A DNA stretch of 59,876 nt from positions 23,001-82,876 of the forward strand of contig CAYWAT010000001.1 in the NCBI GenBank assembly GCA_964456305.1, in the 5' to 3' direction. Below the pieces are notes generated by a model. That model saw only the letters and a list, made by a program, of their open reading frames with translations. It was not told the origin of the DNA and made no database searches. Each line of letters opens with the position of its first letter. Within the stretch, counting starts at the first letter, position 1. Shown here one piece after another: positions 1 through 17,168 of this stretch. Made by a program: the position numbers and the translations under genes. Source of the stretch: an uncultured Polyangiales bacterium. Its GTDB lineage: Bacteria; Myxococcota_A; Polyangia; Polyangiales; CAYWAT01.

Positions 1-680
1 CCAGAGACGGTAGGGTTGACACGACCGTAGTTCGCGACCGAAGGAGGGTTAAGATAAATCGCAAACTCGGGTGTAACGGAATTTCCCCATTCGGACACAC
101 TGCGGCCACCAAGATCGCCATCAACACCGATACGGTTGGCGTTGACGTCGTAGACGTAACCCGCCAAGCCATCGAGGCGTAGCTCGACGACGGCGTCGGT
201 GCCTGAGGCGCCGCCGGGGACAATGGCGTAGAAACTGCCGTAGGTGGCGCGGTCCGAGGAGAACGCACCCGCGTTGAATTGCCAGTTATACGAGAAGACA
301 CGGCCGCCGCTTGTGCTTTGCCCAAGCACAGCGATATCCCAGACATTGCCCACCACTTGCGAGCTGTTGACGACCAGTTTGTACACGCCATTGCCCTGGC
401 TTGGGGCGATGCTTTGGCCAGAAGACAGCGTACCCATAGCGGTGCCATCAGGAGCACTGACGTCAACAGTGCCCACGCCGGTCCATTGGATGGATTCGGC
501 GTTTGCGTCGAGGATATCGACGTAGAGTTCTGTGCCTCCTCGCAGTGCTTGAGTTGTATTGAGTTCGTTCGTACCCTCGGCAAAGACCGATGAGCTCCAC
601 ACGCAGACTAGGAGAACTAAGCTGCACAAATGCACCAGAGATGCGACGTATGATGTGTTGTTGAAACTGCCCTTTTTCAT
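1..680 (-). CDS. secreted protein of unknown function (N-terminal part; gene runs off the left edge)
   Basis: The minus-strand frame is open from ATG 680..678 to the window edge; it is absent from the ORF track because it has no stop in the window. My translation starts MKKGSFNNTSYVASLVHLCSLVLLVCVWSSSVFAEG. That gives a basic n-region, a hydrophobic core and a small-residue cleavage site, typical of a Sec signal peptide. The rest is Gly/Val/Asn/Ser-rich. No family recognised. Confidence 0.6.
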   Translation of the reverse strand, partial: MKKGSFNNTSYVASLVHLCSLVLLVCVWSSSVFAEGTNELNTTQALRGGTELYVDILDANAESIQWTGVGTVDVSAPDGTAMGTLSSGQSIAPSQGNGVYKLVVNSSQVVGNVWDIAVLGQSTSGGRVFSYNWQFNAGAFSSDRATYGSFYAIVPGGASGTDAVVELRLDGLAGYVYDVNANRIGVDGDLGGRSVSEWGNSVTPEFAIYLNPPSVANYGRVNPTVS

Positions 681-897
681 AATCAGAAAAGAAGAGCATA
701 AGCTGTGCCAATCAAATGCTGTTTCTGTGATCTTTGTGCTGATGTTTTATGATTATGAAATTGCTTGATAAAAATATCTTGTCTCAGATTTATTGATACT
801 TATATCAAAGTGTAGGGTGATGTCGTTGTGCCAAAATGAAACAAGGACAATTCTTATATTCCCTGATCGAAACACAGATGTAATCCAGGTCTAAGAC

Positions 898-2364
898 CTA
901 GTTAACCTTTCCAGTTTTCACGGTCTTGTCCCAACGCATTTCGGCGCCGCGCAGCTCTTTGATGTAGGCTCCAAAGGTCACCGCGCATAAAAAGGGACCA
1001 TATCCTCCGATCAGCAGCATCAATGGTGCAAGACGGCGCAATCTCGGTCGAATCTCGGCTTCTTTCGCGCCCCAAGATACCAGCATGGCAATGGAGATCC
1101 ACGAATAAAGAAACGCACGAAACAGTGTAAGCGTTGTTGCACCGACATAAGGCGCGATCAATTCCACTAAAGGTGCGTAAAGCGGGGGCCATAGCGCGTA
1201 GATGATCACACTAAGAGAGATGATTCCAGGAAAAAGAATCCCCTCTAACCAGGTGCGCCGTGCTGACTCCCAGTCCACCACCATCGAAAGCAGGGTAACG
1301 ATCAGATAGACCACCCCGGCGATGACCCAAAAACCACGAAAGAATGACCAGGATAAAGGCTCATTGATACACAACAGTATTAATAAACCTAAGGATGTGC
1401 CGATTTGAAACAAGGGCATCAAAAAGATGGAAAACCATAAAATCCCCATCGAAAAGGATCCCATAAAAGGATGGGCATCGCGATTGAACCACAGGCGTCG
1501 GAATACCGAGGTGATTTGTACATTGCCCCGCGCCCAACGCAGGCGCTGTTTCCATAAGCCCAAAAGGTCGTCGGGTTCCTCCGCGTAAACGATGGCATGG
1601 GGTTCAAAGAGAGCCTTGCGACCGTTGAGCTGGGTACGAAAAGTAGTGAAGGTATCTTCGGCGAGGGTGTTGCTAAAAATCTCCCCACCGATGGCCATCA
1701 TATTTTCGCGACTATGCAGCTGGGCTCCGCCGGATAGGCAAGCCAAAAAGCCCAGCACATTTTGCGCACGTCGTGAAGCTCCGGTGGCGGTGATGTATTC
1801 GAAACCGATGTAACGCTGCACATAGTTAGGACGCTGACTGCCTTCTTTAATATAGGCAGTCACGGCGCCCACTTTGGGATCGGCAAAATGGCGAGCCATG
1901 CGTCCTAGCGAATCGGGGGTGTAGATCACATCGGCGTCCATGATGAGAACCGACTCGGTCCAGTCGCTGCGCCACAGATACTGCAAACCATAGTTGAGAG
2001 TGTGCGCTTTGCCCTCGCCACCAGCCACACGACGAATATGAAAGACCCGGTTGGGAAAACGCTTTGATTTTTCGATAACGATATGTGGCGTTTCATCGCT
2101 TGAGGCATCGTCCACCACAAATACGCGCAGGCGATCTTTGGGATAGTGCAGCCGCATCAAGCGCTCGATGGTGGTGCCGATGACCGCCCCTTCATTCCAT
2201 GCTGGGATGATAATGCTTACACGTGGAAAACGTTGTCCGGCCCGTTCGAGATGCGTCGCGAAGAGGGAGACCATCACCAAGAGGTATTGGTAAAGTCCTG
2301 CTAGCACTGGCACTGTGCCCAAGCACACGAGGATGATGCAGACAATGCTAAGGGCAGTGAGCAC
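898..2364 (-). CDS. membrane-integrated processive family-2 glycosyltransferase (BcsA/PgaC/NodC-like synthase, no PilZ domain)
   Basis: 488 aa. An N-terminal TM segment is followed by a GT-A domain with IIIPAWNE, VVDDASSDET, MDADV and QRLRWARG (the Q-x-x-R-W signature of processive beta-glycosyltransferases), then about five hydrophobic helices. GTG start. Confidence 0.85.
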   Translation of the reverse strand: MLTALSIVCIILVCLGTVPVLAGLYQYLLVMVSLFATHLERAGQRFPRVSIIIPAWNEGAVIGTTIERLMRLHYPKDRLRVFVVDDASSDETPHIVIEKSKRFPNRVFHIRRVAGGEGKAHTLNYGLQYLWRSDWTESVLIMDADVIYTPDSLGRMARHFADPKVGAVTAYIKEGSQRPNYVQRYIGFEYITATGASRRAQNVLGFLACLSGGAQLHSRENMMAIGGEIFSNTLAEDTFTTFRTQLNGRKALFEPHAIVYAEEPDDLLGLWKQRLRWARGNVQITSVFRRLWFNRDAHPFMGSFSMGILWFSIFLMPLFQIGTSLGLLILLCINEPLSWSFFRGFWVIAGVVYLIVTLLSMVVDWESARRTWLEGILFPGIISLSVIIYALWPPLYAPLVELIAPYVGATTLTLFRAFLYSWISIAMLVSWGAKEAEIRPRLRRLAPLMLLIGGYGPFLCAVTFGAYIKELRGAEMRWDKTVKTGKVN

Positions 2365-2444
2365 GCGACGAGGGTAACGTAGTTACTTCATGCCCTCAAA
2401 AACTCAGCTCTTATGGATTGTGAGGGGATGACAATGCTTTTTTA

Positions 2445-3584
2445 TCAAGGCGAAGGCGTGTGTAATCGCAGCCTTGTCGAAGATGTTTTGCGCTGATCTT
2501 TATATGGTTTAGGGGGTAACGTGGGCGCGGTTACAGTGCTCATCGGCGTGGCCTGATAACCGATCATATGCTCAACATCCTGTGGGCGAATGAAACGCTC
2601 TTCGAGGAAGCGCACCACAGCGATTTCGGCGAATTCGCCGACGCTTCGTTTGGGACTTATTCCTTGCAATTCTTCGATCGCGAGGCGTGGCATGTTAATG
2701 CCGCTAGCCACGGTGAGGGGCATGGTGCCGGGAATGCGCGGATTGATTTCGAGTAGGCAAGCGTTGCCCTCAGCATCGCGTCGGAACTGAACATTGATCA
2801 CGAAGCGTAACTTGAGACCTTCTGCCACTTTGGTAGCGGCGCTGATGAGTTCCTGATCTTTGACGGTACAGCTCATCACCGCAACACCGGAATCCACCTT
2901 GAGTCGCTTGCGTGGCACAGCGGCAAGGGCTTCTCCTGTGGAACTTAAGAGTACGTCGACTGAGTACTCTTCGCCGGGCAAATACTCTTGCACAATCCAT
3001 TGGTCGTTGCGTTCGATGAGGTCGAGCTCGTCCGTGCTGCGGATGATGCGAAAGCCACGTGAGCCACTGCCGCTGCGTGGCTTGAGGATAAAGGGAAGCT
3101 GCCACTGGCTGGCATCAAAGTAATCATCAAAGAGGGCCGTCTTTGGAAGGAGTGCAAGGCCTTGGCAGCGTTGAGCAAAGTCCCATTTGTCGAGGCAATG
3201 ACCCAGGCTTTGCTCATCGCCCGCGAGCAATATCATGATGCCATGCTCTTCAAAGCGAATTCGTTCTGCAGCCAGAGGAATCAACTCTGAATCTACCGTG
3301 GGCACCAAAATATGAATCCCGCGTGTTTGACATTCATTGAGTACCGTATCGACAAAGTCTTCGGATTTGCCTGCGGGTAAACGCATCCGTTGAGATGGCG
3401 GAACTAGGTAAAGACCGGCGGCATGTGCATCCATATCGGCAGCATGAATTTGCACATTGCTCTCACGTAGTGCTTTCATCAGCGAAATCGCGGCAGGTCC
3501 TCCTGCCCCGGTGACAAGCACTTTAGTTGCGGATTCACGATGAGTATTCTGCATCACGTCAAAAAAGTGCAAATCGTGCACCAA
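2445..3584 (-). CDS. ATP-grasp family ligase
   Basis: Motifs are KVLVTGAGGPAAISLMKAL (N-lobe), PFILKPRSGSGSRGF (Gly-rich ATP loop), QEYLPGEEYSVDV and LLEINPRIPG (E-x-N metal/ATP site). The start is uncertain (TTG 3584 or ATG 3554). It lies directly upstream of the GT2 gene, co-oriented. Confidence 0.75.
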   Translation of the reverse strand: MVHDLHFFDVMQNTHRESATKVLVTGAGGPAAISLMKALRESNVQIHAADMDAHAAGLYLVPPSQRMRLPAGKSEDFVDTVLNECQTRGIHILVPTVDSELIPLAAERIRFEEHGIMILLAGDEQSLGHCLDKWDFAQRCQGLALLPKTALFDDYFDASQWQLPFILKPRSGSGSRGFRIIRSTDELDLIERNDQWIVQEYLPGEEYSVDVLLSSTGEALAAVPRKRLKVDSGVAVMSCTVKDQELISAATKVAEGLKLRFVINVQFRRDAEGNACLLEINPRIPGTMPLTVASGINMPRLAIEELQGISPKRSVGEFAEIAVVRFLEERFIRPQDVEHMIGYQATPMSTVTAPTLPPKPYKDQRKTSSTRLRLHTPSP

Positions 3585-3697
3585 CTTGAATGTGTTTTAA
3601 TTGATTGCTCCAGGAGCAGGAAAACAGTGCTTATCTCTATCATGCTAATAGCTATACATGTTTTTTCTTTTTCCATTATGGAATGCTCTGTTTCAAA

Positions 3698-4465
3698 ATG
3701 AAACGCGACTGTTTCATTTTGGGTAGTCTAAAGTGCGTTGCTTATCTTGTTTTTCTGTTTTGTATGTTCTCTTGCGAGGCTTTCAGAGGAGGAAAATCAT
3801 TGCCCGTTCCTGAAGCTTGGGCATCTCATAAAATTCATTTTGCCGAACGCGACTGGTATGCACGCCATAGTGATGTGCTTGTCGCTGCTGGGCCAAATCG
3901 ATGGAGTTCGACCTCAGATTCGCTTAGCGTGAACGACCAAGATCAGCTGACAATGCGCATTATCAATCGCGATTATCGTTGGTATGCCAGTGAGATAAGC
4001 ACGCCTTGGCCTTTTGAGCATGGCGCTATGCAGGCTTTGCTGGAAGGTCCTTTGGGTGAGTTGGATGCCAATGTTATTTTTGGCTTTTTCTTATATAAAA
4101 ACGATCATAGCGAACTTGATATCGAGCTTGGGACTTGGGGGAAGTTCAGTGATTACAACGCTCAGTTTGTGGTGGCTCCCCCCATCGAAGCGTCACGCTT
4201 ACATCGTTTTGCGTTGCCCGAAGAGTGTCATAAAGCGATGACATCCATTTGTTTTGGTTCGCGTTATTTTGTCTTTCGTTGGCAGTGTGAAGGTGGTGCG
4301 ATCACGACATGGCGGCATGCGACCACCTTTGTCCCCGAGCCCAGGCAGCATCATGTACACCTCAATCTTTGGATGTTTAAAACCCGTCCACCTCAACAAC
4401 GCAAGTCCGTGGCGATTAAGATTCACGAGGTACGATTTATACCTACAGACTCTTGTACTAATTAG
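3698..4465 (+). CDS. GH16-like (concanavalin-A-fold) glycoside hydrolase lipoprotein
   Basis: The internal ATG at 3698 gives MKRDCFILGSLKCVAYLVFLFCMFSC, a signal peptide with a lipobox-like Cys. The motif NDHSELDIELGTWG matches the GH16 E-x-D-x-E catalytic signature. The ORF-track start at 3605 lies in an AT-rich divergent promoter region and is probably too far upstream. Confidence 0.55.
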   Translation: MKRDCFILGSLKCVAYLVFLFCMFSCEAFRGGKSLPVPEAWASHKIHFAERDWYARHSDVLVAAGPNRWSSTSDSLSVNDQDQLTMRIINRDYRWYASEISTPWPFEHGAMQALLEGPLGELDANVIFGFFLYKNDHSELDIELGTWGKFSDYNAQFVVAPPIEASRLHRFALPEECHKAMTSICFGSRYFVFRWQCEGGAITTWRHATTFVPEPRQHHVHLNLWMFKTRPPQQRKSVAIKIHEVRFIPTDSCTN

Positions 4466-4485
4466 TCAATATATAAGCAAAGAAT

Positions 4486-4501
4486 TGGCATGGAGTTCGC
4501 A
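4486..4501 (+). promoter_or_regulatory. candidate sigma-54 (-24/-12) promoter, TGGCAT-N5-TCGCA
   Basis: TGGCATGGAGTTCGCA has the GG (4487-4488) and GC (4499-4500) dinucleotides at the canonical 12-nt offset. Caveat: the predicted transcription start would be only about 3-4 nt before the GTG start at 4515, leaving no room for a leader. Patterns of this looseness are also expected several times by chance in 60 kb. Confidence 0.2.
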
Positions 4502-4514
4502 TCGTATATAAGGT

Positions 4515-5621
4515 GTGAATGAAGTATCATCCCGTGCCCGCATACTCCTGGTCGAGGATTCTTCCGAGCAAGCTCTGTTGGTTGAAACCTGGCTTGTTCG
4601 TCATGCTGGTTATCAAGTTATAACGGTTGCTTCCTGTGCTGAGGCCATCAAGGCACTATACAGTCAGCCCTACGATCTGGCTTTGATCGATATTGAACTT
4701 CCCGATGGCATTGGGATTGATGTCGCTCTAGCTGCAAAGAAGGCCAATGCACATATCTGCACCATGGTCATGACAGCGCACACGCAGTTTGATTACGCTT
4801 TGCAAGCTATGCGCTCACAGGTGGACGAGTTCATGGTCAAGCCACTGAATCGTGAGCAATTGATCGATTCGGTTCATTCCTTGTTGGAACGCGCTTCGAT
4901 GCGACAGAACCTTCACCGTCGCACGATTCTTGCTGTAGGGGCGCATCCGGACGATGTCGAAATCGGCTGCGGCGGGATTCTTTTGCGCCATGCATCCTTA
5001 GGTGATCGTATTGTAATTCTCACGCTTACCAGCGGTGAAAGCGGCGGCGATGTGTCCACTCGGGCTCAAGAAGCACAATGGGTTGCTAAGGAAATGGGCG
5101 CTGAACTGCGCATGGAAAATTTTCAAGATACGCGTTTGTCGTCGGGGATTGATACAATTGATGTGATTTCAAAAACTGTGCGTGAGCTTGATCCCAATAT
5201 TGTGTACACGCATTCAGAGCACGATCTGCATCAAGACCATCGCGCTGCGCATCAAGCCACCTTGGTTGCGTCCCGTTTGGTGACGAATGTGCTTTGTTAC
5301 CAGAGTCCCTCGAGTACAACGGCCTTTTGCCCGTCGCTCTATGTAGATATCGAAGAGCTAATTCCACGCAAGCTGCGCTTGATTGAAGCCTATGCGTCGC
5401 AAACAGCGAAGTGCAGTTATTTACAACCCGATTTGATTCAAGCTACGGCGCGTTACTGGGGGCGTTTTGCTGGGTATCGCCATGTTGAACCTCTAGAAGT
5501 TGTGCGGGCAATGGATTATCGCTGGTCGCGCGGGTCATCGATGCAACCCGCTGCATCGGCTTCATTTCAAGGTCGCAAGGTCGATACGTCTTTGCCCTGC
5601 ACGCGTGCTTTATCGAGATAA
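4515..5621 (+). CDS. response-regulator receiver fused to PIG-L/LmbE-family N-acetylglucosaminyl deacetylase
   Basis: The N-terminal REC has an intact acidic pocket (LLVEDS), the phospho-acceptor context [11 protein letters not shown], Thr (MTAH) and Lys (VKPL). The C-terminal part carries the PIG-L signature [15 protein letters not shown] and the zinc-site motif [17 protein letters not shown] start. Confidence 0.85.
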
Positions 5622-8428
5622 GCGCCGAGCGATCCGCAGATCTTTCGGGCAAGAGCTGCGTTATTTTGTTTCGCGGCTTGCTCTAATTGAGCTCCAAGTT
5701 CCGATACCTTTGTGACGCCATACAATGTTCCTGAGCCCTTCATGTTGTGACCCACCCGACGCACTTGCTCAAAATCGCCTGCCTGAATGAGTGTTGGGAT
5801 ATTTTTAATATCGCGTTTTCTGCTCTCTAAATAGCCTGGCAATAACTCCGCCACGTCGTCATCATCGACCTGGATCCAAAAGGGCTCGTTGTGAGACGAG
5901 TCGCTTTCCTGTTGTGTGTGCGCGGCATCTGAAAAGGAGGGGTGTAATTGCTCGATATCGGTATCACGATCACCGACTGTGATCGTGTCGTATTGACTCC
6001 TCGTGTTTTGGGCAGACACGGCTTCGTCGATGAGCTCAACGAGCTGTGCAAGTCGAAAAGGCTTTGCCAGTTGTCGTGAACAACCTGCATCAAAACATCG
6101 CTTTTTGATTTCCGAAGTGTCGTGAGCGGTGGTGGCGATAAGGGGGATGTTTTGAATGTTGGGTAGCATGCGAAGTTTGGCGGCCAGGTCCCACCCCTTC
6201 ATATCGGGAAGTTCAACGTCGAGGAGAATAACATCAAGACGATGCGACTGAGCGATGCTAAGCGCCTGGTTTGCAGTTTCGGCGCTGAGCACTTGGTAGC
6301 GCCCTGTGGTTTGCAGCATGCGCTCCATGACCAGTCGGTTTTCTACGAAGTCGTCAACAATCAGCACTGTTGGAAAATTAGCAACCCATGATGCGACGGT
6401 TTCGGCGAGGACTTGGCGTTGCACGGGTTTGGTAAGGTAGTCATTCATGCCCACGCTGAAGCATCGGTCGCGATAATCTTTAAGCGCATGCGCGGTTAGA
6501 GCGATAATGGGCACGCGGGTGATCCATGCATCTTTTTCCCATTTGCGAATGCGTTCTGTGACTTCAAACCCAGTTGTATCGGGGAGATCAATGTCCATAA
6601 TAATGGCATCAAATATACCGGATAAAGCGAGCTGCTCTCCTTCCGCACCTGTTTTAGCTAAAGTGACTTTAAATCCTGATTTGCTTAGCACTTGGTTGAT
6701 ATACAGTTGATTGTCTTCGTTGTCCTCAACCACCAGAATAGCTTCTCCATTTCCTGCCGAAACTGGGTGCATGGTTGTGCCTGTGGTCGAAAAGAATTTC
6801 TTTGTCTGGATTTCTTTATCCCGACTCATTGCCTGATGAATGGCTTCTTTGAGGGGTGCGAGTCGCACAGGCTTGGGAATGGAAGGGATGCTTTGGATAT
6901 CGTGAATAGGGCTCTTAAATGTAGTTAGCGGTGCAATAAAAACCGTTGGTATATTTCGCTCGATGGTTTTTAAAAATGAGAGAATGCGTCGTTGATGCTC
7001 GTAAGAGCTGTCGACGATAAGCAGGTCAATCTTTTCATTGTGCAAAATGCTTGAAATTGCAGACTGATCATGTGCCATGGCGACATCCCAGTTCCATGAC
7101 TGGAGAATGTTTCTGAGTGATTGATTGCTTGCCAGTTTGGTATTCGCCCAAAAAGCTGCTTTTTTATGGCTCCCTTTGAAATCGATGTCATCGGCCTTGC
7201 GAGGCATGATCGATGCCTCGATGATAGGGAAAGACAACTTGACAATGAAGGATGAACCTTTGTTTAGCGAGCTCTCGAGTTCCAGAGAACCATGCATAAT
7301 ACTAATAATTGAACGCGTGATGCTTAAGCCTAGTCCTGTGCCTCCATAGGTGCGATTTGTTGCATTGTTGGCTTGGACGAAACGGTCGAAAATAGCATTT
7401 TGCCGGTCAGCAGCGATGCCAATGCCAGTATCTTCTATGCATAGTTGACACTGCCATAGTCCGTCTTGAAGATCGGTACTTTGGCTTACTCGCACAATGA
7501 CATGACCTTGAGATGTAAATTTAACCGCGTTGCCAATGAGGTTAAACAAAACCTGGCGAATGCGCGCTGGGTCGCCGATGACTCGGTCAGGAGGAAAGAC
7601 GTCCCACATCACACATAGTTCCAATTTTTTGGATTCTGCCTTTCCAGAAAAAGATTCGACGACGTCTTCGATGACTTCAACTAGAGAAAAGGGTGTTGAT
7701 TCAAGGGCGATTTGTCCTGATTCGATTTTGGAAAGATCGAGAATATCGTTGATCAGTGATAAGAGCGCTTCGGAGCTTGCTTCGACAGATCGTAGGTAGC
7801 GCGCTTGCTCATTTGAAAGGTCGGTGAGAGAAAGCAGGTCAGACATACCAAGAATGGCGTTAAGAGGAGTGCGTATTTCATGACTCATCACTGCTAAGAA
7901 ATTTGATTTCGCGCGATTGGCTTCTTCTGCATCATTTTTCGCCTGCAGGAGCTTTTCATTCATGTCGTGTATTTTTTGTGCGTTCTTTTGTGATTCTGCG
8001 ATGCTTGAGGTTAATTGGCTTAGTAAGTTCAAGTATTCTGCGAGAGGATTGTGAGCCGCAAAATCATTTTCTTGTAGACCTTTTTCTGTGAGTTCGTTCA
8101 GCGATGTAATCCATGGCGAACCAAGATAGAGATATCCTTTGCTGAGTTGCACAAACTGACCGCGTAATAGTAGTCGTTTTTGTCGTTCTTCAAGAAGATA
8201 GATTTTGCCTACATGCTGGTAAATGTTGTCGTCTGTAAGCTCGTCCTCTGCATGCACAGATTGAAAATAACAACTGATGGTTGTTCCTTGCTTAATCTGC
8301 GGAAGGGCTTTGCGTAAACTGCGACCGGTTTCTTGAATGCGTCCTTGGTTATCAATGTAGATAAAAAATGGAAATATGTTTTTGATGTTCTCGTCTTTAA
8401 GTGCGTATTTATCCTGTTTTATGTGCAT
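5567..8428 (-). CDS. cytoplasmic hybrid histidine kinase: HNOBA-like sensor, HisKA, HATPase_c, pseudo-receiver, two receivers, Hpt
   Basis: There are no TM segments. The N-terminus ([47 protein letters not shown]) resembles the HNOBA domain of soluble guanylate cyclases ([30 protein letters not shown]). H-box: [14 protein letters not shown]-boxes: DTGIGI and GGTGLGLSI. The two receivers have [19 protein letters not shown] and [19 protein letters not shown]. The C-terminal Hpt has GHNMKGSG. Its 3' end overlaps the convergent gene by 55 nt. Confidence 0.9.
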
Positions 8429-8730
8429 CTGTCTAAATCGTTCAGTGGATTTCGTCTTTGATCATTCACTGTGCTGTGTCTGCGATGATTCTTCTGATGT
8501 CTTTGCGACTTATGTAACCCTTTGATTCAACGCGATGCGGCTGACTCTGCATTTTAGGATGTGTCCTTGATGACGAATTGATGAATTTCGTATTCTTACG
8601 GATAACGATCCAGGTCAGCGTATCATGCGCATAGAGGGAAAATCTACGCTTTCTCTCTGGGCCCACTTTCCTCTTCTCATGAGTGTAAGAGGTTTGTTAC
8701 GCTTTCCATGTGTATTCTGGTGGGCAACAT

Positions 8731-10161
8731 ATGCCGCTCGTCTTGGTCGTGGATGACGATGCGTCGATGCGCATGATTTTAACCAAATGGTTAACGCGCG
8801 CGGGGCTACAGGTTGAAAGTTGCGCCGATGCGGAAAGCCTGATTTTAAAGCTGCCTAACTGTGAACCACAGGCGATTTGCCTGGACTTAGGCCTACCCGG
8901 TATCGATGGTCTTGAGGCGCTGCCGTTGATTCGCAGTTATCACAGCAAGGTCCCGGTGATCGTCTTGACGGCAGAAGAAGGTGTGCAGACGGTGGTGGAA
9001 GCGATGCGCAAAGGCGCCTTTGATTACCTGTCAAAACCGCCTCGTCAGGACAGTTTTTTGAGTTCTGTGCAACGCGCTCTGCGTTGGTTTTCTCTTGTGG
9101 ATCAGTCTTCTGTGTCGCCCTCAGATCCGGTGCATCATGACCCCGTGCATATGATTGGTGTGTGCATGGCAATGCAACGGGTCATTAGTAAGGTTAACAA
9201 AATCGCGCCCACCAATATCACCGTGCACATTCAAGGTGAGAGTGGGACGGGCAAAGAGCTGATCGCGCGGGCTATCCATGCGCGCAGCGAACGCGCGAAG
9301 CATCCTTTTGTGGCTGTAAACTGCGGTGCGATTCCGGAGACGCTGCAAGACTCGGAATTCTTTGGCCATGAGAAAGGCGCGTTCACCGGCGCTGCACGCA
9401 GTAAATCGGGACGTTTCGAGCAGGCCCATGGCGGCACTCTCTTTCTCGATGAAGTGGCTGAGTTGTCTGCCTCTATGCAGGTCAGACTATTGCGGGTGCT
9501 GCAAGAGAGACGCTTTGAACGTGTGGGTGGATCCCGTTTGATTGAATCCAATTTTCGACTTCTCACTGCGACGCATCGCGATTTACAAGCGATGGTAGCG
9601 CGGGGCGAATTCCGCCAAGATCTCTACTTTCGCATCGCGGTTATGGAGGTTGAGTTGCCGCCCTTGCGCGCGCGCGAAGGTGATATCCCTGTTTTGATTC
9701 GAGGGCTCTTAGAGCGTATCGCCCACGAGCGCGGCATTGAAATCCTGACCGTAGAGGATGAGGCGTTGGCCAAGCTCGAAAGCTACGCATGGCCGGGCAA
9801 CATTCGCGAGCTTTACAATGTGTTGCAACGCGCTTCCGTGCTTGCTGAGGACAATTGCATTCGTGTGTGGGACTTACCGCCTCGCGTGCTCGGTCATACG
9901 ACCTTGCCCGAGGCAAGTCCGCAGCCGAAGAAGGAACAACAATCTTTGCAGGACCCAGTGTCCTTGTCCGCTGTGATGTCTTCGTCTTATCCGCCGATGA
10001 ACCTCGAAGAGCTCGAGCGCTGGGCAATTCAGATGGCCCTCAAGAAAACCGGCGGCAATCTCAGTGCTGCAGTCAAGCGGTTGGGCATTGGTCGCACCAC
10101 GCTCTACCGCAAAATCAAGCAGTACAATTTGAAAACCATGCCTCAAGGTGATGCTACATGA
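8731..10161 (+). CDS. sigma-54-dependent response regulator (NtrC/Fis family enhancer-binding protein)
   Basis: REC ([23 protein letters not shown]), AAA+ domain with Walker A GESGTGKE, the sigma-54 contact loop GAFTGA, Walker B LFLDEV, and a C-terminal Fis-type HTH ([20 protein letters not shown]). ATG 8731 is preferred over GTG 8710 because a GGTGGG lies upstream of it. Confidence 0.9.
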
Positions 10162-11510
10162 CGCGTAAATATTTTGGAACGGATGGCATACGTGGACTTG
10201 CCAATCGCGAACCGATGACTGCACATACCGTGCAACGTCTGGGTCGCGCGTTGGCAGCTCGTTTGTCGCACCCAACGCGCAAACCGCGTGTGGTGATCGG
10301 TAAAGATACCCGTCTGTCTGGCTACTTGTTTGAGACGGCTTTGGCCTCTGGGGTTGTCGCCCAAGGGGGCGATGTATGGTTGACCGGACCCTTGCCCACG
10401 CCGGCGATTGCCTTTTTGACCGCATCGATGCGCGCCGATGCTGGGGTGGTGATCAGCGCGTCGCATAACCCGCATCAAGACAATGGCATCAAGCTCTTTG
10501 GTCCCGATGGATTTAAGCTCAACGATGCGCTCGAGTCTGAGATAGAAGCGTTGATCGATTCCATCGAGGCGGAGAACCAAGGCGCTGACGCTGATGATAT
10601 TGGCAGCGCGACTCGCGTCGATGATGCGGTGGGGCGTTACGTCGTTTTTTGCAAACACACCTTTCCGCGTCACCTCTCTCTCGATGGTATACATTTGGTG
10701 GTGGATTGCGCACATGGTGCGGCTTATCGAACGGCGCCTCTGGTATTTGAAGAACTGGGCGCAACCGTCACTGTGTTAAACGCATCGCCGAATGGCAAAA
10801 ACATCAATCAAGATTCGGGTGCACTGCATCCCGAGGGCTTGTGTGAGGCGGTGCGACAAGAAAAGGCTCATCTTGGCATTGCGCTGGATGGTGATGCCGA
10901 CCGCTTGATTCTGGTCGACGAGCAGGGCGAGCTTCTGGATGGTGATACCGTACTCGCTATTTGTGCACGTGACTTACTAAAGCAAAACCGTTTACCGCGT
11001 CGCACCGCAGTAGCTACCGTGATGTCTAACCTGGGGCTGGAGCACGCATTGCGCAGTGCCGGCGGTAAGCTGATTCGCACCCAGGTTGGGGACCGTTATG
11101 TGGTGGAGGCCATGCGTGAGGGCGGTTTTCATTTGGGCGGTGAGTCTTCGGGGCATCTTATTTTTCTCGATCGCTCGAGCACAGGCGATGGGATTATTGC
11201 TGCCCTTGCGGTGCTTGAGGTGATGATTCGCAGCGAGAAAAGTTTGGGTGAATTACGCAAATGTATTTCTCAGTTTCCTCAGGTGCTACTCAACGTACCG
11301 GTCGCAAACAAACCTGCTCTCGATACCCTCGCTGAGGTACAAAAGTCCATTCAAGACGCGCAGCAACAACTGCGTGACGAAGGGCGCGTATTGGTACGCT
11401 ATAGCGGCACGGAGATGAAGGCGCGCGTGATGGTGGAGGGCGTACAAGAGGAACTGCTTCGCCAACATGCCGACAACATCGCCGAGTCACTGCGTCTTGC
11501 CTGCTCATGA
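10158..11510 (+). CDS. glmM: phosphoglucosamine mutase
   Basis: YFGTDGIRG at the N-terminus, the active-site phosphoserine motif [13 protein letters not shown], the metal loop DGDADR and the sugar loop GGESSGH. The start overlaps the stop of the upstream activator (ATGA, 10158-10161). Confidence 0.95.
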
Positions 11511-11540
11511 TCACCATGCTTCGGGTGGAGCGTACGTTGG

Positions 11541-12893
11541 ATGATGTTGATCAAGGTTCAACGTAAAGCCTTATGGGTGAGCACAGCAGCAATGTTATGT
11601 GCATGGTCCAGCTTGGGAGCGGCAGAGTCTGTGGCATCGCTCGAAGGTGTGCGCGAACGTTTGGCTCATGGTGAAAAAAAATCCGCCTATCGCATGCTCA
11701 AGCGTCTCGTTGCAGAGGGGAATCGCGAGCCCGACGCCTTTCTATTTTTAGGGGTGCTGACCCGCGAGCAAGGCAGTGAGCATTACGACGCGGCTATCGC
11801 TTGGTTTGAACGCGGTCTTGGCTATGACCCGCATTATCCTGCCCTCTTGCTTGAGCTTGCGGTAACCTATTCCTGGGCTGACCAATACGCGAAGTCGATT
11901 GCAACCTACGATCGATTGCTAGGTTTGCAGCCAGACCACCGCGATGCGCAGTTGGGCAAAGCACGGGTGTCCGTGTGGGCCGGTAAGCATGAGGATGCTT
12001 TAGCGATTTATCAGCAGGTCGTGCAGCAGGAACCCAAGCATATCGAGGCTCTACGCGGGATTGCCTTGATTCATCGCATACGCATGCGTTTCGATGAATC
12101 GCGTCGCTACTACCATACGGTGCTGGCGCAAGCGCCTGAGGATGAGGAATCCAAAGAAGGTTTGCGGGAGATTGCGCAGGCTACGCGTTGGCAGCTAGAA
12201 GCCGGTGCTATTTTAGCGGGCAGTCCGTCTCAGTCGCTGCAGTTTGGTGGTCTTGCTAGCGTCGCCTATAAACTGAACCCCGAGGTGACGCTGCGTGCGC
12301 GTTACGTTGCCACAGCACAGCAGGTGTTGCTCGGTCGTGCCGATGAGCTGGGCGATGTAAGTGTGCAGCGCGAGATTCAAAATCTGCAGCATAACGCCGA
12401 AATCAATGCCAGTTTCAAGATCATCGAGTCCTTAACTCTATCGCCGCAATATGGCGTACGCGTCGTTGAGGAGAACGTCACGCATTTGGTTGGGCTGCGC
12501 CTTGATTGGAAGTTTCATCCTCAGTTGGTTTTATTAGGCGGCATGCGACCGGGTTTTTCACACGACGCTGTCATCGAAGCTCTGCTCGATACGGGCATCC
12601 AGTATATTCCCCTCGAGCATCTTTGGCTCATGGTGCAGGGTTTTGTCTTTGTGAATACAGAGTCGCAGCGTAACTGGTCAACATTATTCACCACCTGGAT
12701 TGATTTTTTGAATCCTGTGGCTTTTAAAGTTGGCGCTGGAGTAGGGCAGATACAGTCGGATATTAGCGTGCAATTCTTGGCTGCGATCAATGTATTGATC
12801 ACACGCGATTTTGAAGTCGCAATTAACTATGAAATGCAGCAAATTTTTATCGAGCGTCACATGGGGCAGCTGTCCTTGATATTGAGGATCTAA
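11541..12893 (+). CDS. TPR-repeat protein with C-terminal beta-barrel-like half (small BcsC/PgaA-like outer-membrane export candidate)
   Basis: A signal peptide (AAMLCAWSSLGAAES) is followed by about 200 aa of TPR-like repeats (AIAWFERGLGYDPHYPALLLELA.., YDRLLGLQPDHRDAQLG..). The next roughly 230 aa have alternating hydrophobic/polar strands typical of an OM beta-barrel. The function is inferred from architecture and context only. Confidence 0.55.
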   Translation: MMLIKVQRKALWVSTAAMLCAWSSLGAAESVASLEGVRERLAHGEKKSAYRMLKRLVAEGNREPDAFLFLGVLTREQGSEHYDAAIAWFERGLGYDPHYPALLLELAVTYSWADQYAKSIATYDRLLGLQPDHRDAQLGKARVSVWAGKHEDALAIYQQVVQQEPKHIEALRGIALIHRIRMRFDESRRYYHTVLAQAPEDEESKEGLREIAQATRWQLEAGAILAGSPSQSLQFGGLASVAYKLNPEVTLRARYVATAQQVLLGRADELGDVSVQREIQNLQHNAEINASFKIIESLTLSPQYGVRVVEENVTHLVGLRLDWKFHPQLVLLGGMRPGFSHDAVIEALLDTGIQYIPLEHLWLMVQGFVFVNTESQRNWSTLFTTWIDFLNPVAFKVGAGVGQIQSDISVQFLAAINVLITRDFEVAINYEMQQIFIERHMGQLSLILRI

Positions 12894-12900
12894 ATAACAA

Positions 12901-15126
12901 ATGCTGGCGAGTCGACTTAAGCTTGGGCGTATCGGTTTTGCATTCAGCATCATGTCAGTGCTGCTTTTGTTAACAAATGCCAACGCCTTATCTCAAGACG
13001 AAAATCATCAAGTGCATCGATCGGCATCAGAGACAGAGTCTTTTCGCTTGATGCCCATAGAGCGGCCACTGGTGCTCAAGGGAAGTGAGAGTAGTGCAGA
13101 ATTTTCTATCAACATATCCGATGGTGTCGTTGTTGAACGCGATATAATTCTTTCCTTGCGAGGTAATGTTTCAGAGTTGATTGATGCAAATAAGTCGACA
13201 TTAACAGTGGAGGTCGATCGTCGACCTTTGCGTACTGTTTGGCTATCACGAATTCTGGTTAAGTCATCGGATGACAAAGACAGTGGGCGATCCTTTGCGC
13301 TTGTCATCTCCCTGCGTGATCTCAGTGCTGGATTGCATAACCTGCGTGTGCGCAGTCACTTGCTGATCGATGATGACCCTTGCTTAGACAAGTACGCGGA
13401 TGAGGCATGGATTAAGCTTTCACCGAAGAGCAAGGTATCGGGATATCGCCAGGTCATGCATCGCAAAGACTCAGGTGACCTTAGCCAACTGCAGTCCATA
13501 TGGTCTCGTGATAACTTGTCCATTGCTCTGAGTCCCCCTGCAGCGTTAACCCCCAAGAACGCTCTCGCGGCAATCGAATCCGATCATATGATTCGCGGCA
13601 TGGGCTTTACGCCTCGCTATGAGGCCTCGCCTACGATGGATACGGATGCCAATGACTATGCGGGTGTGTTGCGTTTACGCGTATTAAAGCAAGCCGACGA
13701 TGTTGCCGAGTCTCTGGTTGGCGCTTTGCAAAATGCCCCCAAAGATGCGCATGCGCTTGTTCATTTGGTCGGTTCCGAGCTCACGCTGCTGGCTCGTTCC
13801 GATGCCCACTTGCAGGATGCGGTGCGCATGGTGGCGCTGCCGCAGGTACGGGCGATGTGCCTGGCGTCGCATCCTTGTCTTTTGGGACCGCGCATGCGTA
13901 GGCGTCTGGGATCGGCGCAAGAACAAAGCTTAGGTCGGCGTCATAATACGGGTGCTGATGACCCAACCCAGGTTTTGACCCTGGCTGATGTGGGCTTTCC
14001 GCGCGGTTGGGTGGCCAAAGGGGCGGGCAAGCACACCTTGCGTTTTGTATGGCAGCGACCTTTTTATTGGACTGTCGATCAGTACCCCAATCTACAACTC
14101 TTTGTGCGCTGGTCGCAGGGTGCGCCTTGGCATGAAAAGGGCACTGTTTTGTCTGTTCAAATCAATGGCGTGCCCATTTCCTCGTGGCACTTCGCGCAGC
14201 AGAATAAAAAAGACGGCGTATTTGATTTGCGCCTGCCTGAGGAGCTTTGGCAGGATGAGGCTTGGGTGTTTGAAATCGTCGCACAGCTACGCGCTAATGA
14301 CGACGTTCCCTGTACCGTGACCCGTGATGAGGAGCTCTGGCTCTCCCTTGCTCCAAGCAGTCATCTTCGCGTTGCTCGCAGTGAACGGCAGGGTGAGGGG
14401 TTGGCCGCCTTTTTCCAGCAGGCTAAGAAGCATAAACGCAAGCCAGTCTTAGGCTGGCGCGGACGCTTGGAGTGGCCGACCCTCTTTTTATGGGCATCTG
14501 CACTGTATCCCTTTGCGGTGGAAATTCCGGCGTTGCCATGGCGTTGGGAAGAAGGCAAAAAAAATCAGCGTGCCATGCGCATCATCGCCTTTGGTCATCA
14601 TCATGATACGCGGGGGAGTTTGCGTCGTCGTCGTGCCGGCAACCCGGCTGCACAATTTTGGGTTGATGTGGCTGGCCGCTTTGGGATGCCCTTAGTGCGC
14701 GTCGATGAAAGCGTTCGACTTGTCCATCATCAAGGCAGTAAGCAGAAGGGCGCATGGTTAGAGATCAATTTTCCACATCCGCAGATCAGTTCGGATGACG
14801 ATAATGCATGGGCTGGTTTTCCGCCGGACTACACACAGCTCGTCGGTCGCGAAGTGCTGTGGATAGAGGGTCAGTGGCATAATCTCGAGGACCCCTCGTC
14901 GCAGGCCAAAACAAAGACGGTGCATTATTCTAAAAACTCGCCTTTGGCTGCCCTTAGACAGAAGGCCCATCTTCCCAGTGACGAAGAAAACTTGCTCACG
15001 CGCATTAATCTCATTTGGGCATCATGTTCGGTGATTTTGCTTGTCGGCATTGCTATCTATTGGTGGCGTCGACCTCGGAACAAAGACGATGTTCATGTGT
15101 CTTCTGTGGAAGAGCATTCAGGATGA
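12901..15126 (+). CDS. BcsB-like periplasmic synthase subunit with C-terminal membrane anchor
   Basis: It has a signal peptide and a single C-terminal TM helix (LIWASCSVILLVGIAIYWW). Two internally repeated halves each show the BcsB-type pattern. Examples are LKGSESSAEFSINISDGVVVERDIILSLRGNVSELIDANKSTLTVEVDRRPL, DDPCLDKYADEAWIKL, LSVQINGVPISSW and DDVPCTVTRDEELWLSL. Compare E. coli BcsB: LRGINPNGSIEFGM..LNLEYTPSPSLLPVQSQLKVYLNDELM and QDVCEKPASTTLWLDV. Recognised from memory, not searched. Confidence 0.65.
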   Translation: MLASRLKLGRIGFAFSIMSVLLLLTNANALSQDENHQVHRSASETESFRLMPIERPLVLKGSESSAEFSINISDGVVVERDIILSLRGNVSELIDANKSTLTVEVDRRPLRTVWLSRILVKSSDDKDSGRSFALVISLRDLSAGLHNLRVRSHLLIDDDPCLDKYADEAWIKLSPKSKVSGYRQVMHRKDSGDLSQLQSIWSRDNLSIALSPPAALTPKNALAAIESDHMIRGMGFTPRYEASPTMDTDANDYAGVLRLRVLKQADDVAESLVGALQNAPKDAHALVHLVGSELTLLARSDAHLQDAVRMVALPQVRAMCLASHPCLLGPRMRRRLGSAQEQSLGRRHNTGADDPTQVLTLADVGFPRGWVAKGAGKHTLRFVWQRPFYWTVDQYPNLQLFVRWSQGAPWHEKGTVLSVQINGVPISSWHFAQQNKKDGVFDLRLPEELWQDEAWVFEIVAQLRANDDVPCTVTRDEELWLSLAPSSHLRVARSERQGEGLAAFFQQAKKHKRKPVLGWRGRLEWPTLFLWASALYPFAVEIPALPWRWEEGKKNQRAMRIIAFGHHHDTRGSLRRRRAGNPAAQFWVDVAGRFGMPLVRVDESVRLVHHQGSKQKGAWLEINFPHPQISSDDDNAWAGFPPDYTQLVGREVLWIEGQWHNLEDPSSQAKTKTVHYSKNSPLAALRQKAHLPSDEENLLTRINLIWASCSVILLVGIAIYWWRRPRNKDDVHVSSVEEHSG

Positions 15127-15133
15127 ATCTGCA

Positions 15134-15292
15134 ATGCCAGGCATGAATATCGCAAGCCTATTAAGGCGACTTCGTCTGCTTCAGTCTAAGAAAAGACGGC
15201 TAAGAATGATTGCATTAATTATTATCTCTATTGACTTGCTAGCCGCTATTGCGCTTTGGATTCTTCGCACTCAGTCAAGGTATATGTTTTAG
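15134..15292 (+). CDS. small single-pass membrane protein (52 aa), hypothetical
   Basis: The ATG lies 7 nt after the BcsB-like stop. The product is MPGMNIASLLRRLRLLQSKKRRLRMIALIIISIDLLAAIALWILRTQSRYMF, a basic segment plus one TM helix. Its stop abuts the next ATG (TAGATG). Small membrane subunits are common in synthase operons. Support comes from position only. Confidence 0.3.
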   Translation: MPGMNIASLLRRLRLLQSKKRRLRMIALIIISIDLLAAIALWILRTQSRYMF

Positions 15293-15856
15293 ATGAGCGA
15301 ATGGCGTCCATGTCGACTCGTCCCTGTACCCTCGCCTGTGTTCGATGATGACATCCCCACAGCGCTTGAGGTTCAAGAGGTCGCCCGCCAATTGCTTGTC
15401 TTCTTACACGACCAAGGGCCCTTGTTGCCTGCCAATCCTAATCTGTTGATCGCTCTTTGGGATCGCTCTTTAAACACGCCCTCTGAAAAGGCGCTGCGTG
15501 AAGCCATCGCCCTGTTGATTCGTGAAAAATATGCCCATAAGTGCATCGTTGGGCATGACTCCCATCTTTTGTTGGCGGGGGATGTCGATATATCTCAAAT
15601 GCCTTCTGTCGTAGCGGCTCCGGCGCCTCCTCCTGCACGTCGGCGTCAACCTAGCCTCAGTCAGACAAATTACGAAGAACAAGACATTCAAGAAAAACCG
15701 CCTGAGGATGAATCATTAGAACGAAAATTTGAGTTAGAGGTTTCCATTGATGTCGAGAAAGAACGCATTCTTTTGTATCGATCCTTGATCGCCTTGGGCA
15801 TTATCGCAGGGTTGGTACTGTTGCGTGAAGTGGCACTTTTTTTCTTTGGTCTATAA
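15293..15856 (+). CDS. hypothetical tail-anchored membrane protein
   Basis: 187 aa. A soluble N-terminal domain is followed by a Pro/Ala-rich linker (AAPAPPPARRRQP), an acidic segment and one C-terminal TM helix (LIALGIIAGLVLL). No family recognised. Confidence 0.5.
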   Translation: MSEWRPCRLVPVPSPVFDDDIPTALEVQEVARQLLVFLHDQGPLLPANPNLLIALWDRSLNTPSEKALREAIALLIREKYAHKCIVGHDSHLLLAGDVDISQMPSVVAAPAPPPARRRQPSLSQTNYEEQDIQEKPPEDESLERKFELEVSIDVEKERILLYRSLIALGIIAGLVLLREVALFFFGL

Positions 15857-15868: not shown

Positions 15869-16243
15869 ATGAAAATGTCAAAAAAATACATGGAAGAAAC
15901 AGCCGTTTTTATATCCAGCCGAGGTTATGAACTTAAGAAAGAAAACGACGAAATGAACTCTGTTCAAGATGATGGTCAAGGCGAAGAAATCGACGGTCGA
16001 GTGCGCTTTGTTCTTAGTTCAGAATCGCAAAAAGAATTTATTCTTGAATGTGTTTCTTATGCCAGTGGAGTAGAAAACTATTTTCTTGAGATCAAAAAAT
16101 ACTTTCAGCTGCGATGCTTTAGTTTCCCCTTAGACTCGTGGAAGTATTTCCCCGATCGCGTTGAGTTTAAGTTTTATGCGATTGACGAACCTCCCTTAGG
16201 ATTGAGCTTTATCCTCGACCTGCCCGAGTTAACAGCGGTCTGA
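15869..16243 (+). CDS. hypothetical protein (AT-rich gene)
   Basis: 124 aa with no recognisable motifs. By eye the gene is markedly AT-richer than its neighbours. The ATG is 12 nt after the upstream stop. Confidence 0.45.
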   Translation: MKMSKKYMEETAVFISSRGYELKKENDEMNSVQDDGQGEEIDGRVRFVLSSESQKEFILECVSYASGVENYFLEIKKYFQLRCFSFPLDSWKYFPDRVEFKFYAIDEPPLGLSFILDLPELTAV

Positions 16244-16289
16244 ATTTTAGTTGCTCTCGATATGAGGGCTCGTAACGACGGCGCTTTAC

Positions 16290-16305
16290 TGGCATATAGA
16301 TGGCC
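16290..16305 (+). promoter_or_regulatory. candidate sigma-54 (-24/-12) promoter, TGGCAT-N5-ATGGC
   Basis: TGGCATATAGATGGCC has GG (16291-16292) and GC (16303-16304) at the canonical 12-nt offset. It lies about 48 nt upstream of ATG 16352, which is preceded by a purine-rich AAAGAG. The -12 element is weak, and the match could be chance. Confidence 0.25.
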
Positions 16306-16351
16306 AAGCGATTTCATCGCTCTGTTTCATCTAGAAAGAAAGAGTCTCAAA

Positions 16352-17085: not shown

Positions 17086-17168
17086 AAGCTGTGTGGACAT
17101 ATAGAATACACATCGCATCGATTAAATACGTATTCTTTACTGGCTTTTCTACATCATGTGATCTAGGG

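Follow-up and report, generated by a model that had tools for sequence, protein, structure and literature searches.

A conserved gene set for a putative synthase-dependent exopolysaccharide, with a receiver-fused deacetylase and a divergent BcsB, in an uncultured Polyangiales bacterium

The DNA analysed here is a window of 59,876 nucleotides from an uncultured Polyangiales bacterium (contig CAYWAT010000001.1, positions 23,001 to 82,876), and its subject is a cluster of genes around a membrane-embedded family 2 glycosyltransferase (GT2). The gene set is real, conserved and uncharacterised, and it would make and export a sugar polymer which, to judge from the enzymes encoded, is probably based on amino sugars. 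On balance, the locus is probably a synthase-dependent exopolysaccharide (EPS) system of an undescribed subtype, controlled by two-component signalling and sigma-54. A sequence-only reading of the window, made without database searches, had described the locus as a mixture of cellulose (Bcs) and poly-N-acetylglucosamine (PNAG, Pga) machinery split around a phosphorelay. The open reading frames (ORFs) that it listed are all present where it had placed them, and its interpretation is supported in part; a polymer of N-acetylglucosamine (GlcNAc) and glucosamine (GlcN) is what we infer. Coordinates are positions in the window (Table 1), and domain calls are from Pfam and NCBIfam scans of the ORFs of the locus (window positions 1-31005).

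Relatives of the GT2 were collected by scanning GTDB, with each species represented by a single genome, followed by tblastn among the pattern-matched stretches. This gave 446 relatives, and 80 loci were compared by tblastn of the window proteins and by unbiased clustering of all ORFs. The diderm-type loci, L001-L032, have GT2s 61-73% identical to that of the window and come mostly from metagenome-assembled genomes of Myxococcota (Kofleriaceae, Polyangiaceae, Nannocystales), although their labels also include a few Beta-/Gammaproteobacteria and four Actinomycetota. The actinobacterial loci, L033-L080, have GT2s 51-54% identical to it and include isolates of Leifsonia, Cellulomonas, Agromyces, Sanguibacter, Nakamurella, Pseudoclavibacter and Antiquaquibacter. 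Eighteen diderm-type and 36 actinobacterial loci extend for at least 6 kb on both sides and are referred to as full-flank loci.

The comparison divides the system into two layers. The core, present in both groups, consists of the GT2, an ATP-grasp ligase and REC-PIG-L, a receiver domain fused to a PIG-L de-N-acetylase, usually with a PHP phosphoesterase. The other layer is an export module found only in the diderm-type loci and composed of a tetratricopeptide repeat (TPR)/outer-membrane protein, BcsB, a membrane protein of about 50 residues, a tail-anchored protein and a protein of 124 residues (p124). The ATP-grasp gene lies beside the GT2 gene in 17 of the 18 diderm-type and all 36 actinobacterial full-flank loci, and full-length REC-PIG-L is found in 13 and 36 of them, respectively. 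No other neighbour accompanies the GT2 as constantly in the two phyla as these two do, and therefore they are not bystanders. Within the export module, a BcsB-like protein occurs in 14/18 full-flank diderm-type loci, p124 in 16/18 (24 of all 32), and the TPR protein of the window, TPR450, in 7/18. The genes for the GT2, p124 and BcsB adjoin one another in eight loci (L004, L005, L006, L012, L017, L020, L024 and L029). In Leifsonia, the operon order is REC-PIG-L, ATP-grasp, PHP, GT2, REC, PAS-kinase. The genes are thus co-conserved in relatives. Because the core is found in Actinomycetota without BcsB or TPR, the locus is not simply a Bcs/Pga mosaic: the heart of the system is REC-PIG-L, ATP-grasp and GT2, usually with PHP.

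The GT2 was confirmed as a 488-residue enzyme with the QRLRWARG motif (Pfam Glyco_tranf_2_3, 1e-30) and without a PilZ match. Its hydrophobic segments, one or two near the N-terminus (residues 4-36) and about four or five toward the C-terminus (approximately 300-466), surround the catalytic domain. In an alignment of 61 homologues the motifs IIPAWNE, VVDDxSxD, MDADV, CLSGGAQLH, LAEDT and QRLRWARGN are near-invariant, and they make up the D, DxD, ED, QxxRW signature of processive inverting synthases. The best NCBIfam model, TIGR03937 (PgaC_IcaA), aligns over nearly the full length including the transmembrane (TM) regions, with an E-value of 4e-38; at 131.4 bits, the match is below the equivalog cut-off of 422.3. 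The CelA models TIGR03030 and NF008558 score 63 and 46 bits against cut-offs of 699 and 992, and PgaC/IcaA ranks far above NodC, CelA and the lipid-sugar GT2s (HpnI, ArnC-like, PpgS). The nearest solved sequences, an archaeal membrane GT2 (6yv7) and BcsA, are both distant. By these comparisons, the GT2 is PgaC-like in architecture and lies outside the PgaC family. Grouping with non-processive or lipid-linked enzymes had been raised as a possible objection; the nearest enzymes are the processive PgaC/IcaA, and the processive motifs are kept.

Of the enzymes encoded next to the GT2, the deacetylase was correctly recognised by the sequence-only reading, which missed its fusion to the receiver. 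The acceptor Asp and the conserved Lys of the receiver and the AHPDD and HQDH motifs are kept in 49 homologues. REC-PIG-L thus looks like an active, phosphorylation-controlled enzyme, as far as conserved residues can tell. Its nearest solved structures are TT1542, BshB1, BcZBP and diacetylchitobiose deacetylase. The ATP-grasp ligase was likewise confirmed, with 2pn1 and PylC as the closest solved structures; translation probably begins at the ATG at 3554. The gene that had been called glmM does encode the phosphoglucosamine mutase (TIGR01455). A HisJ-like PHP phosphoesterase is encoded in 40 loci of both groups (e.g. L070:9255-9977 and L001:3429-4136). In the diderm-type relatives the PHP gene directly precedes the TPR gene, and the window carries glmM at that place.

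The 741-residue protein had been described as BcsB-like, with two repeats and a C-terminal anchor. Pfam, AlphaFold and Foldseek all agree with this description. It scores 47 bits against Pfam BcsB (cut-off 21), and 27 of 28 aligned family members match the same model. Exact look-up and a word-indexed homology search with this protein found no relatives. An exhaustive phmmer search of 1.8 billion representatives recovered a family of 141 clusters in which the best match is 34% identical, if a fragment from the same organism is left aside. The AlphaFold2 model, built on the family alignment (pLDDT 82, pTM 0.70), contains a signal or TM segment, a pair of beta-sandwich and alpha/beta domain that occurs twice in succession, and, near the C-terminus, a long helix (residues 694-723) that includes a predicted TM segment at 702-720. 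When the model was compared with the PDB by Foldseek, the first 22 matches were all BcsB chains (E 1e-23 to 3e-19, about 720 aligned columns, 10-14% identity), and the next match had an E-value of 3e-6. The protein is a genuine, very divergent BcsB, and it has the two repeats of CBD and flavodoxin-like domain and the C-terminal TM anchor of that subunit.

Several small proteins accompany BcsB. The tiny protein encoded directly after it has one TM segment, as noted earlier, and its position and pattern are kept in five relatives: between BcsB and p124, loci L011, L013, L018, L019 and L031 encode a single-pass protein of 45-50 residues with the pattern RLRxL...LLxxDLL...RF. A tail-anchored ORF resembling that of p187, with the motifs LLPAD...HLL and ERLVLYR, occupies the same position in L011, L013, L019 and L031; in L018 the small TM ORF alone is clear in this interval. 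The window ORFs at 15134-15292 and 15293-15856 match these relatives, and both are therefore real genes. No relatives of p187 were found in Pfam, NCBIfam or the PDB, and a domain search detected no relation of the 52-residue membrane protein to PgaD. The soluble p124 has the invariant residues G19, E60, F86, D89-S90-W91 and E99, and none of 16 members matched Pfam at E-values up to 1; NCBIfam likewise has no relative of it. The idea that p124 is a hidden PilZ or other known domain was rejected, as it has no Pfam match and its PDB matches are at chance level. In four loci binned as Actinomycetota/Thermoleophilia/Solirubrobacteraceae (L007, L008, L010 and L030), a diderm-type GT2 (65-67% identical) is accompanied by p124 without BcsB; either p124 travels with this GT2 subfamily independently of the export module, or the contigs are mis-binned.

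TPR450 had been described as a small TPR plus beta-barrel protein. The TPR region (residues 33-215) is borne out; it follows a signal peptide and is modelled confidently by AlphaFold2. The barrel has weaker signs. A profile of the C-terminal domain has as its top PDB matches the FadL-family barrels TbuX and TodX, at weak E-values of 0.002-0.04. The beta-type hydrophobic moment of this domain is twice the alpha-type moment, the reverse of what is seen in the TPR part, and homologues end in F, W, L, I or V (e.g. ...GRSF, ...GRTF, ...LRLRW). Taken together, these features make an outer-membrane beta-barrel the probable fold of the C-terminal domain. When the full TPR450 alignment served as the query, homology searching yielded unrelated TPR proteins only, and a chimeric query of the barrel and p124 recovered one orthologue. 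TPR450 scores 29.5 bits against the BcsC model (cut-off 858) and 36.7 and 25.6 bits against PgaA models (cut-offs about 366 and 1043).

The lipoprotein had been called GH16-like (GH, glycoside hydrolase family). Its ORF and its motif are present: a hydrophobic segment followed by Cys stands at the N-terminus, where the lipobox was read by eye, and E-x-D-x-E, ELDIE in the window, is invariant in the family (n=5). The assignment to GH16 is weaker. The profile has a sole PDB match, the GH16 lichenase 1mac, which aligns the catalytic motif at a weak E-value of 1.9; the single sequence matched nothing in the PDB, and there is no Pfam or NCBIfam match. Homologues of the lipoprotein are found in 4/32 diderm-type loci.

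As to regulation, domain scans confirmed both the hybrid kinase (HisKA-HATPase-REC-REC-Hpt) and the NtrC-type sigma-54 activator of the earlier description, and the -24/-12 sites conserved among relatives support control by sigma-54. Full-length homologues of the activator, which like the export module is confined to the diderm-type group, occur in 14/32 diderm-type loci (10/18 of those with full flanks), and long homologues of the kinase in eight diderm-type loci. The window was searched with the pattern TGGCAC-N5-TTGC, allowing up to two mismatches; in the scan of the loci, GG and GC were anchored. When both strands of the 32 diderm-type loci (1.04 Mb) were scanned, 42 sites with at most one mismatch were counted. 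Half of these (21/42) lie within 200 nt upstream of genes of the system, in an area that makes up 2.9% of the sequence (binomial p about 1e-21): six precede ATP-grasp, five PHP, three BcsB, three REC-PIG-L, three the secreted protein and one the lipoprotein. The window itself has three candidate sites, all at gene starts. The one ahead of secN, which encodes a large secreted protein and is truncated at the edge of the window, corresponds to upstream sites with at most one mismatch before the secN homologues in L014, L015 and L029. Equivalents of the site of the ATP-grasp-GT2 operon, with zero or one mismatch, are found at the same place in L002, L003, L004, L020, L028 and L029. The site ahead of REC-PIG-L has equivalents with at most one mismatch in L011, L028 and L029 and with two mismatches in L005, L012, L021 and L024. 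Lipoprotein homologues in L003 and L011 are also preceded by sigma-54 sites. From these patterns, the sigma-54 dependence of the family is well supported, and that of the window locus plausible. A scan for sigma-70 promoters and terminators was uninformative.

The sequence-only reading had further proposed that the phosphorelay and sigma-54 replace control by cyclic di-GMP (c-di-GMP). Domain scans of the ORFs in the first 31 kb found none of the receptor domains PilZ, GGDEF and EAL, and it is from this absence that a replacement is read. The three conserved proteins of the export module (the tiny membrane protein, p187 and p124) could be c-di-GMP receptors.

Based on these findings, the following pathway can be postulated. 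The cytoplasmic hybrid kinase would send phosphoryl groups via its Hpt domain to two receivers, that of the NtrC-type activator and that of REC-PIG-L, and the activator would turn on sigma-54 promoters ahead of the biosynthetic genes. The PgaC-like GT2 would polymerise a UDP-sugar, most likely UDP-GlcNAc, aided by the operon-encoded GlmM, and thread the chain through the inner membrane. The divergent BcsB would dock on the synthase via its C-terminal helix and pass the chain over the periplasm, with the 52-residue membrane protein, the tail-anchored protein and the soluble 124-residue protein as putative further conserved subunits. TPR450, via its probable small beta-barrel, would then export the chain over the outer membrane, and the possibly GH16-like lipoprotein may trim it. 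PIG-L would strip N-acetyl groups and the ATP-grasp ligase add another carboxylate as an amide, presumably on a precursor or primer, with PHP taking part in relatives, so that another acyl or aminoacyl group would stand in place of the N-acetyl group. By analogy with mycothiol/bacillithiol or with NodC-NodB-NodA, the order of tailoring may be glycosylation, dephosphorylation, de-N-acetylation and ligation.

A wider scheme, which is possible but doubtful, treats the core as a cross-phylum pathway. REC-PIG-L, ATP-grasp with PHP, and the GT2 would make a GlcN polysaccharide that is re-acylated with another carboxylate, for example an amino acid; a His-Asp relay would switch the deacetylase and so replace the c-di-GMP gate of Bcs, Pga, Pel and Alg; and in diderms the chain would leave through a new, minimal BcsB/small-barrel module with three unannotated subunits.

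Several observations weigh against the assignment to a synthase-dependent EPS system with an amino-sugar product. The score of 131 bits against a cut-off of 422 means that sugar specificity is not fixed by the match to PgaC. By tblastn, glmM is present in 0/80 related loci and is thus specific to the window, and the whole 59.9-kb window has no PHP homologue. AlphaFold2, run on a two-sequence alignment, gave a pLDDT of about 25 for residues 218-450 of TPR450 and modelled no barrel. The pattern for sigma-54 sites has 81 matches in the window against 79 in shuffles, so that the argument rests on site position and on conservation in relatives; moreover, each of the three candidates of the window has two mismatches. 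A cytoplasmic deacetylase and ligase also fit awkwardly with a chain that is exported during synthesis. Finally, all 36 full-flank actinobacterial loci carry the core without BcsB, TPR or p124, an observation which also favours the main rival explanation. According to this explanation, the GT2, PHP, REC-PIG-L and ATP-grasp together make a non-polymeric glycoconjugate, either a membrane glycolipid or a small GlcN-amide metabolite, by the logic of mycothiol/bacillithiol, and BcsB and TPR serve export or another process. The actinobacterial operon of REC-PIG-L, ATP-grasp, PHP and GT2 agrees with it, as do the affinities of the PIG-L domain to BshB1, TT1542 and BcZBP and of PHP to HisJ, and some non-processive GT2/GT21 enzymes also carry QxxRW. 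On the other hand, PNAG-type synthases of Gram-positive bacteria also work without BcsB, and the match of the GT2 to PgaC/IcaA, which extends from end to end through the TM regions, is far better than those to HpnI, ArnC-like enzymes or PpgS. Its gene is closely linked in diderms to those for BcsB and a TPR/outer-membrane protein, and partners of the BcsB/TPR type are known solely from polymer secretion (PMC4125290). The glycoconjugate explanation fits poorly with the PgaC-like architecture and with this linkage, and is considered unlikely, though possible for the actinobacterial loci.

Two other explanations keep the polymer and change its kind. The locus might be a divergent, otherwise ordinary Bcs or Pga operon with PIG-L and ATP-grasp as unrelated neighbours. 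The BcsB fold, the matches of the TPR protein to both BcsC and PgaA models and of the GT2 to both PgaC_IcaA and CelA models would then find a simple explanation. However, all these matches fall far short of their cut-offs (PgaC 131/422, CelA 63/699, PgaA 37/367, BcsC 30/858), the scanned ORFs include no PilZ, GH8, carbohydrate esterase family 4 (CE4) deacetylase or PgaD, BcsB is only 10-14% identical to solved BcsBs, and the supposed neighbours are the genes that stay most constantly with the GT2 over two phyla. We regard this explanation as quite unlikely. Alternatively, the polymer may be a beta-1,3 or mixed-linkage glucan (MLG), similar to curdlan or MLG, with the lipoprotein as its cognate glucanase and PIG-L and ATP-grasp acting, say, on a regulator or a primer. 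The synthases of curdlan and MLG are likewise GT2s that lack PilZ, and the lipoprotein has the invariant ExDxE motif and, as its sole PDB profile match, a GH16 lichenase; if the lipoprotein is truly GH16-like, a beta-glucan fits as well as a GlcNAc polymer, which counts against the amino-sugar product. Nevertheless, the GH16 match is weak (E=1.9), the lipoprotein is found in 4/32 related loci, the GT2 fits PgaC/NodC-type models better than CelA-type models, and PIG-L and, in the window, GlmM point to amino sugars. A glucan is therefore very unlikely, and the synthase-dependent EPS system with a probable amino-sugar polymer is the reading that we retain.

Table 1. Genes and candidate sigma-54 sites of the locus (positions in the 59,876-nt window)
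Feature	Position	Strand	Basis or remark
secN, large secreted protein, 5' part, cut by window edge	1..680	-	Signal-peptide-like N-terminus
Candidate sigma-54 site TGGCACAGCTTATGCT	695..710	-	15 nt upstream of secN ATG
GT2, membrane-embedded putative polymer synthase, 488 aa, PgaC/IcaA-like	898..2364	-	Pfam, NCBIfam, motifs, TM segments
ATP-grasp amide ligase, in operon with GT2	2445..3584	-	ATPgrasp_Ter 1.6e-34
Candidate sigma-54 site TGGTGCACGATTTGCA, ATP-grasp-GT2 operon	3568..3583	-	Just before likely ATP-grasp start 3554
Lipoprotein, invariant ExDxE, possibly GH16-like glycanase	3698..4465 (ORF from 3605)	+	Motif, weak profile match
Candidate sigma-54 site TGGCATGGAGTTCGCA	4486..4501	+	14 nt upstream of REC-PIG-L
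REC-PIG-L, receiver fused to cytoplasmic PIG-L/LmbE GlcNAc de-N-acetylase	4515..5621	+	Pfam REC 6.8e-18, PIG-L 8.2e-26
Hybrid histidine kinase, cytoplasmic (signalling helix-HisKA-HATPase-REC-REC-Hpt)	5567..8428	-	Pfam; no TM segment
NtrC-type sigma-54 activator, first gene of export operon	8710..10161	+	REC, Sigma54_activat and HTH_8
GlmM, phosphoglucosamine mutase	10158..11510	+	TIGR01455, 586.9 bits (cut-off 447.55)
TPR450, secreted TPR protein with probable outer-membrane beta-barrel, putative exporter	11541..12893	+	TPR Pfam matches
BcsB, divergent, 741 aa, periplasmic, two repeats, C-terminal TM anchor	12901..15126	+	Pfam, AlphaFold2, Foldseek
Tiny single-pass membrane protein, 52 aa, directly after BcsB	15134..15292	+	TM segment, conserved position
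p187, 187 aa, cytoplasmic domain and C-terminal TM helix (tail-anchored)	15293..15856	+	TM at 159-183
p124, soluble, 124 aa, unannotated family, usually beside GT2 in relatives	15869..16243	+	Conserved residues, synteny
Putative lipoprotein with lamin-tail domain, last gene of tight operon	16262..16984	+	LTD 8e-8, just under Pfam cut-off

Between 8710 and 16984 the genes follow one another at distances of -4 to 30 bases and look like a single operon; the last 4 bases of the activator gene are also the first 4 of glmM. The last gene, for the lamin-tail lipoprotein, has a counterpart in 0/80 related loci. The convergent 3' ends of the REC-PIG-L and hybrid kinase ORFs overlap by 55 bases (5567-5621). 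The tail of REC-PIG-L past approximately residue 335 is not conserved, and its true stop or the 55-base overlap may be open to question. At the other edge of the locus, homologues of secN (993-1270 residues, 54-60% identical over the window fragment) adjoin the GT2 locus in L002, L014, L015, L021 and L029, and a more distant one does so in L011. These homologues (e.g. L014:3768-6896 and L029:16218-19415) have weak FlgD_ig, TSP3 and CIA30 matches, and one has a weak MYXO-CTERM match. This match, and the Myxococcota metagenome-assembled genomes that hold the closest relatives of the GT2, indicate a probable origin of the window in an uncultured member of the Myxococcota. SecN could be a matrix, surface or adhesin partner of the polymer.

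Directly after the EPS operon, the plus strand of 17091-29275 encodes a 2257-residue type I polyketide synthase (KS-AT-KR-DH), a 492-residue protein with a weak methyltransferase match, an 877-residue kinase that combines two HATPase domains with a REC, and a protein of the REC-HATPase type. This region may be a separate lipid/polyketide locus or may be co-regulated with the EPS genes. Farther along, a repeat of about 100 nt with the core TCGCTCTCAATTTGC[T/G]TTGAGCCTGAG... is present at 31007-31100, 45870-45963 and 46465-46558 on the plus strand (three copies against 0 expected, mean column identity 85%). Each copy begins no more than two bases after the stop codon of a gene (genes ending at 31005, 45868 and 46463), and the repeat may be an element similar to repetitive extragenic palindromes or miniature inverted-repeat transposable elements (REP/MITE), a shared terminator or a regulatory module.

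The well-studied synthase-dependent systems (cellulose, PNAG, Pel, alginate and Listeria Pss) are gated by c-di-GMP. In the present conserved family no c-di-GMP receptor is recognisable, and regulation through the receiver-fused deacetylase and sigma-54 would provide such machines with a second logic of control. The family also shows BcsB of diderm bacteria with partners other than those of cellulose synthesis, and it brings to light three conserved subunits that had no annotation. Its product may be a new polymer of N-acyl-glucosamine, made by Myxococcota of soil and sea as well as by many Actinomycetota. Since the actinobacterial carriers include cultured Leifsonia, Cellulomonas, Agromyces, Sanguibacter and Nakamurella, the question can be tested in culturable strains.

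Apart from a c-di-GMP receptor, the locus agrees with the generic definition of a synthase-dependent EPS system, the outer-membrane barrel of the exporter being a probable one. A canonical Bcs or Pga operon was rejected, all equivalog cut-offs (PgaC, CelA, PgaA and BcsC) having been missed. With BcsA-BcsB-BcsC-BcsZ of cellulose it shares a four-domain BcsB with a TM anchor, a TPR-containing, probable outer-membrane partner and a possible associated glycanase. It differs in that the synthase has 488 residues and no PilZ domain, the putative hydrolase is not of family GH8 (no GH8, the family of BcsZ, was found in the locus genes scanned), BcsB is as distant from the solved BcsBs as described above, and control is by sigma-54 and two-component signalling. 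The likeness to PgaABCD/IcaADBC lies in the GT2, which is nearest to TIGR03937, in the likely TPR-plus-barrel exporter and in the logic of de-N-acetylation. In contrast to PNAG systems, however, the deacetylase is a cytoplasmic PIG-L enzyme joined to a receiver, BcsB is present, and the exporter has 450 residues against about 800. The domains CE4, GH153 (PgaB/IcaB) and PgaD were found in none of the locus ORFs scanned.

The tailoring enzymes resemble those of smaller molecules. In the mycothiol/bacillithiol pathways and in Nod factor synthesis, a GlcNAc glycoside is made and de-N-acetylated (by PIG-L enzymes in MshB/BshB and by NodB), after which an ATP-dependent ligase or an acyltransferase acylates the free amine anew; the mycothiol pathway includes a phosphatase step. 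The window differs from these in that the glycosyltransferase is a multi-TM GT2 of the synthase type, the ligase is an ATP-grasp enzyme, and the deacetylase would be controlled directly by its receiver. No description of REC-PIG-L, of ATP-grasp/PIG-L/GT2 or of LmbE combinations as such a system was found in the literature.

Control of EPS by two-component signals has precedents. The syp locus of Vibrio fischeri is an EPS locus controlled by the sigma-54 activator SypG. EpsW of M. xanthus activates the priming transferase of the EPS pathway (PMC12802240). As in these systems, the two-component signal would act on EPS both transcriptionally and at the level of an enzyme; both of them, however, are of the Wzx/Wzy type, whereas the window pathway would be synthase-dependent, with a receiver fused to a sugar deacetylase.

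The PssA-E system of Listeria monocytogenes resembles the locus in that a PgaC/IcaA-like GT2 without PilZ is paired with BcsB. PssC and PssD are, respectively, such a GT2 and a BcsB orthologue, and the product is a non-cellulose EPS; a TPR/outer-membrane exporter, REC-PIG-L and ATP-grasp are not described there for pssA-E (PMC4125290). Listeria differs in being monoderm and in having PssE, a c-di-GMP receptor with a degenerate GGDEF domain. YdaJKLMN of B. subtilis, also a monoderm, in which YdaK is a degenerate-GGDEF c-di-GMP receptor, is similar to Listeria Pss. Neither system is known to be under sigma-54 control. The pairing of a PgaC-like GT2 with BcsB is therefore already known from Listeria, and what is of interest in the present locus is the receiver-fused deacetylase, the tailoring by an ATP-grasp ligase and the compact export module.

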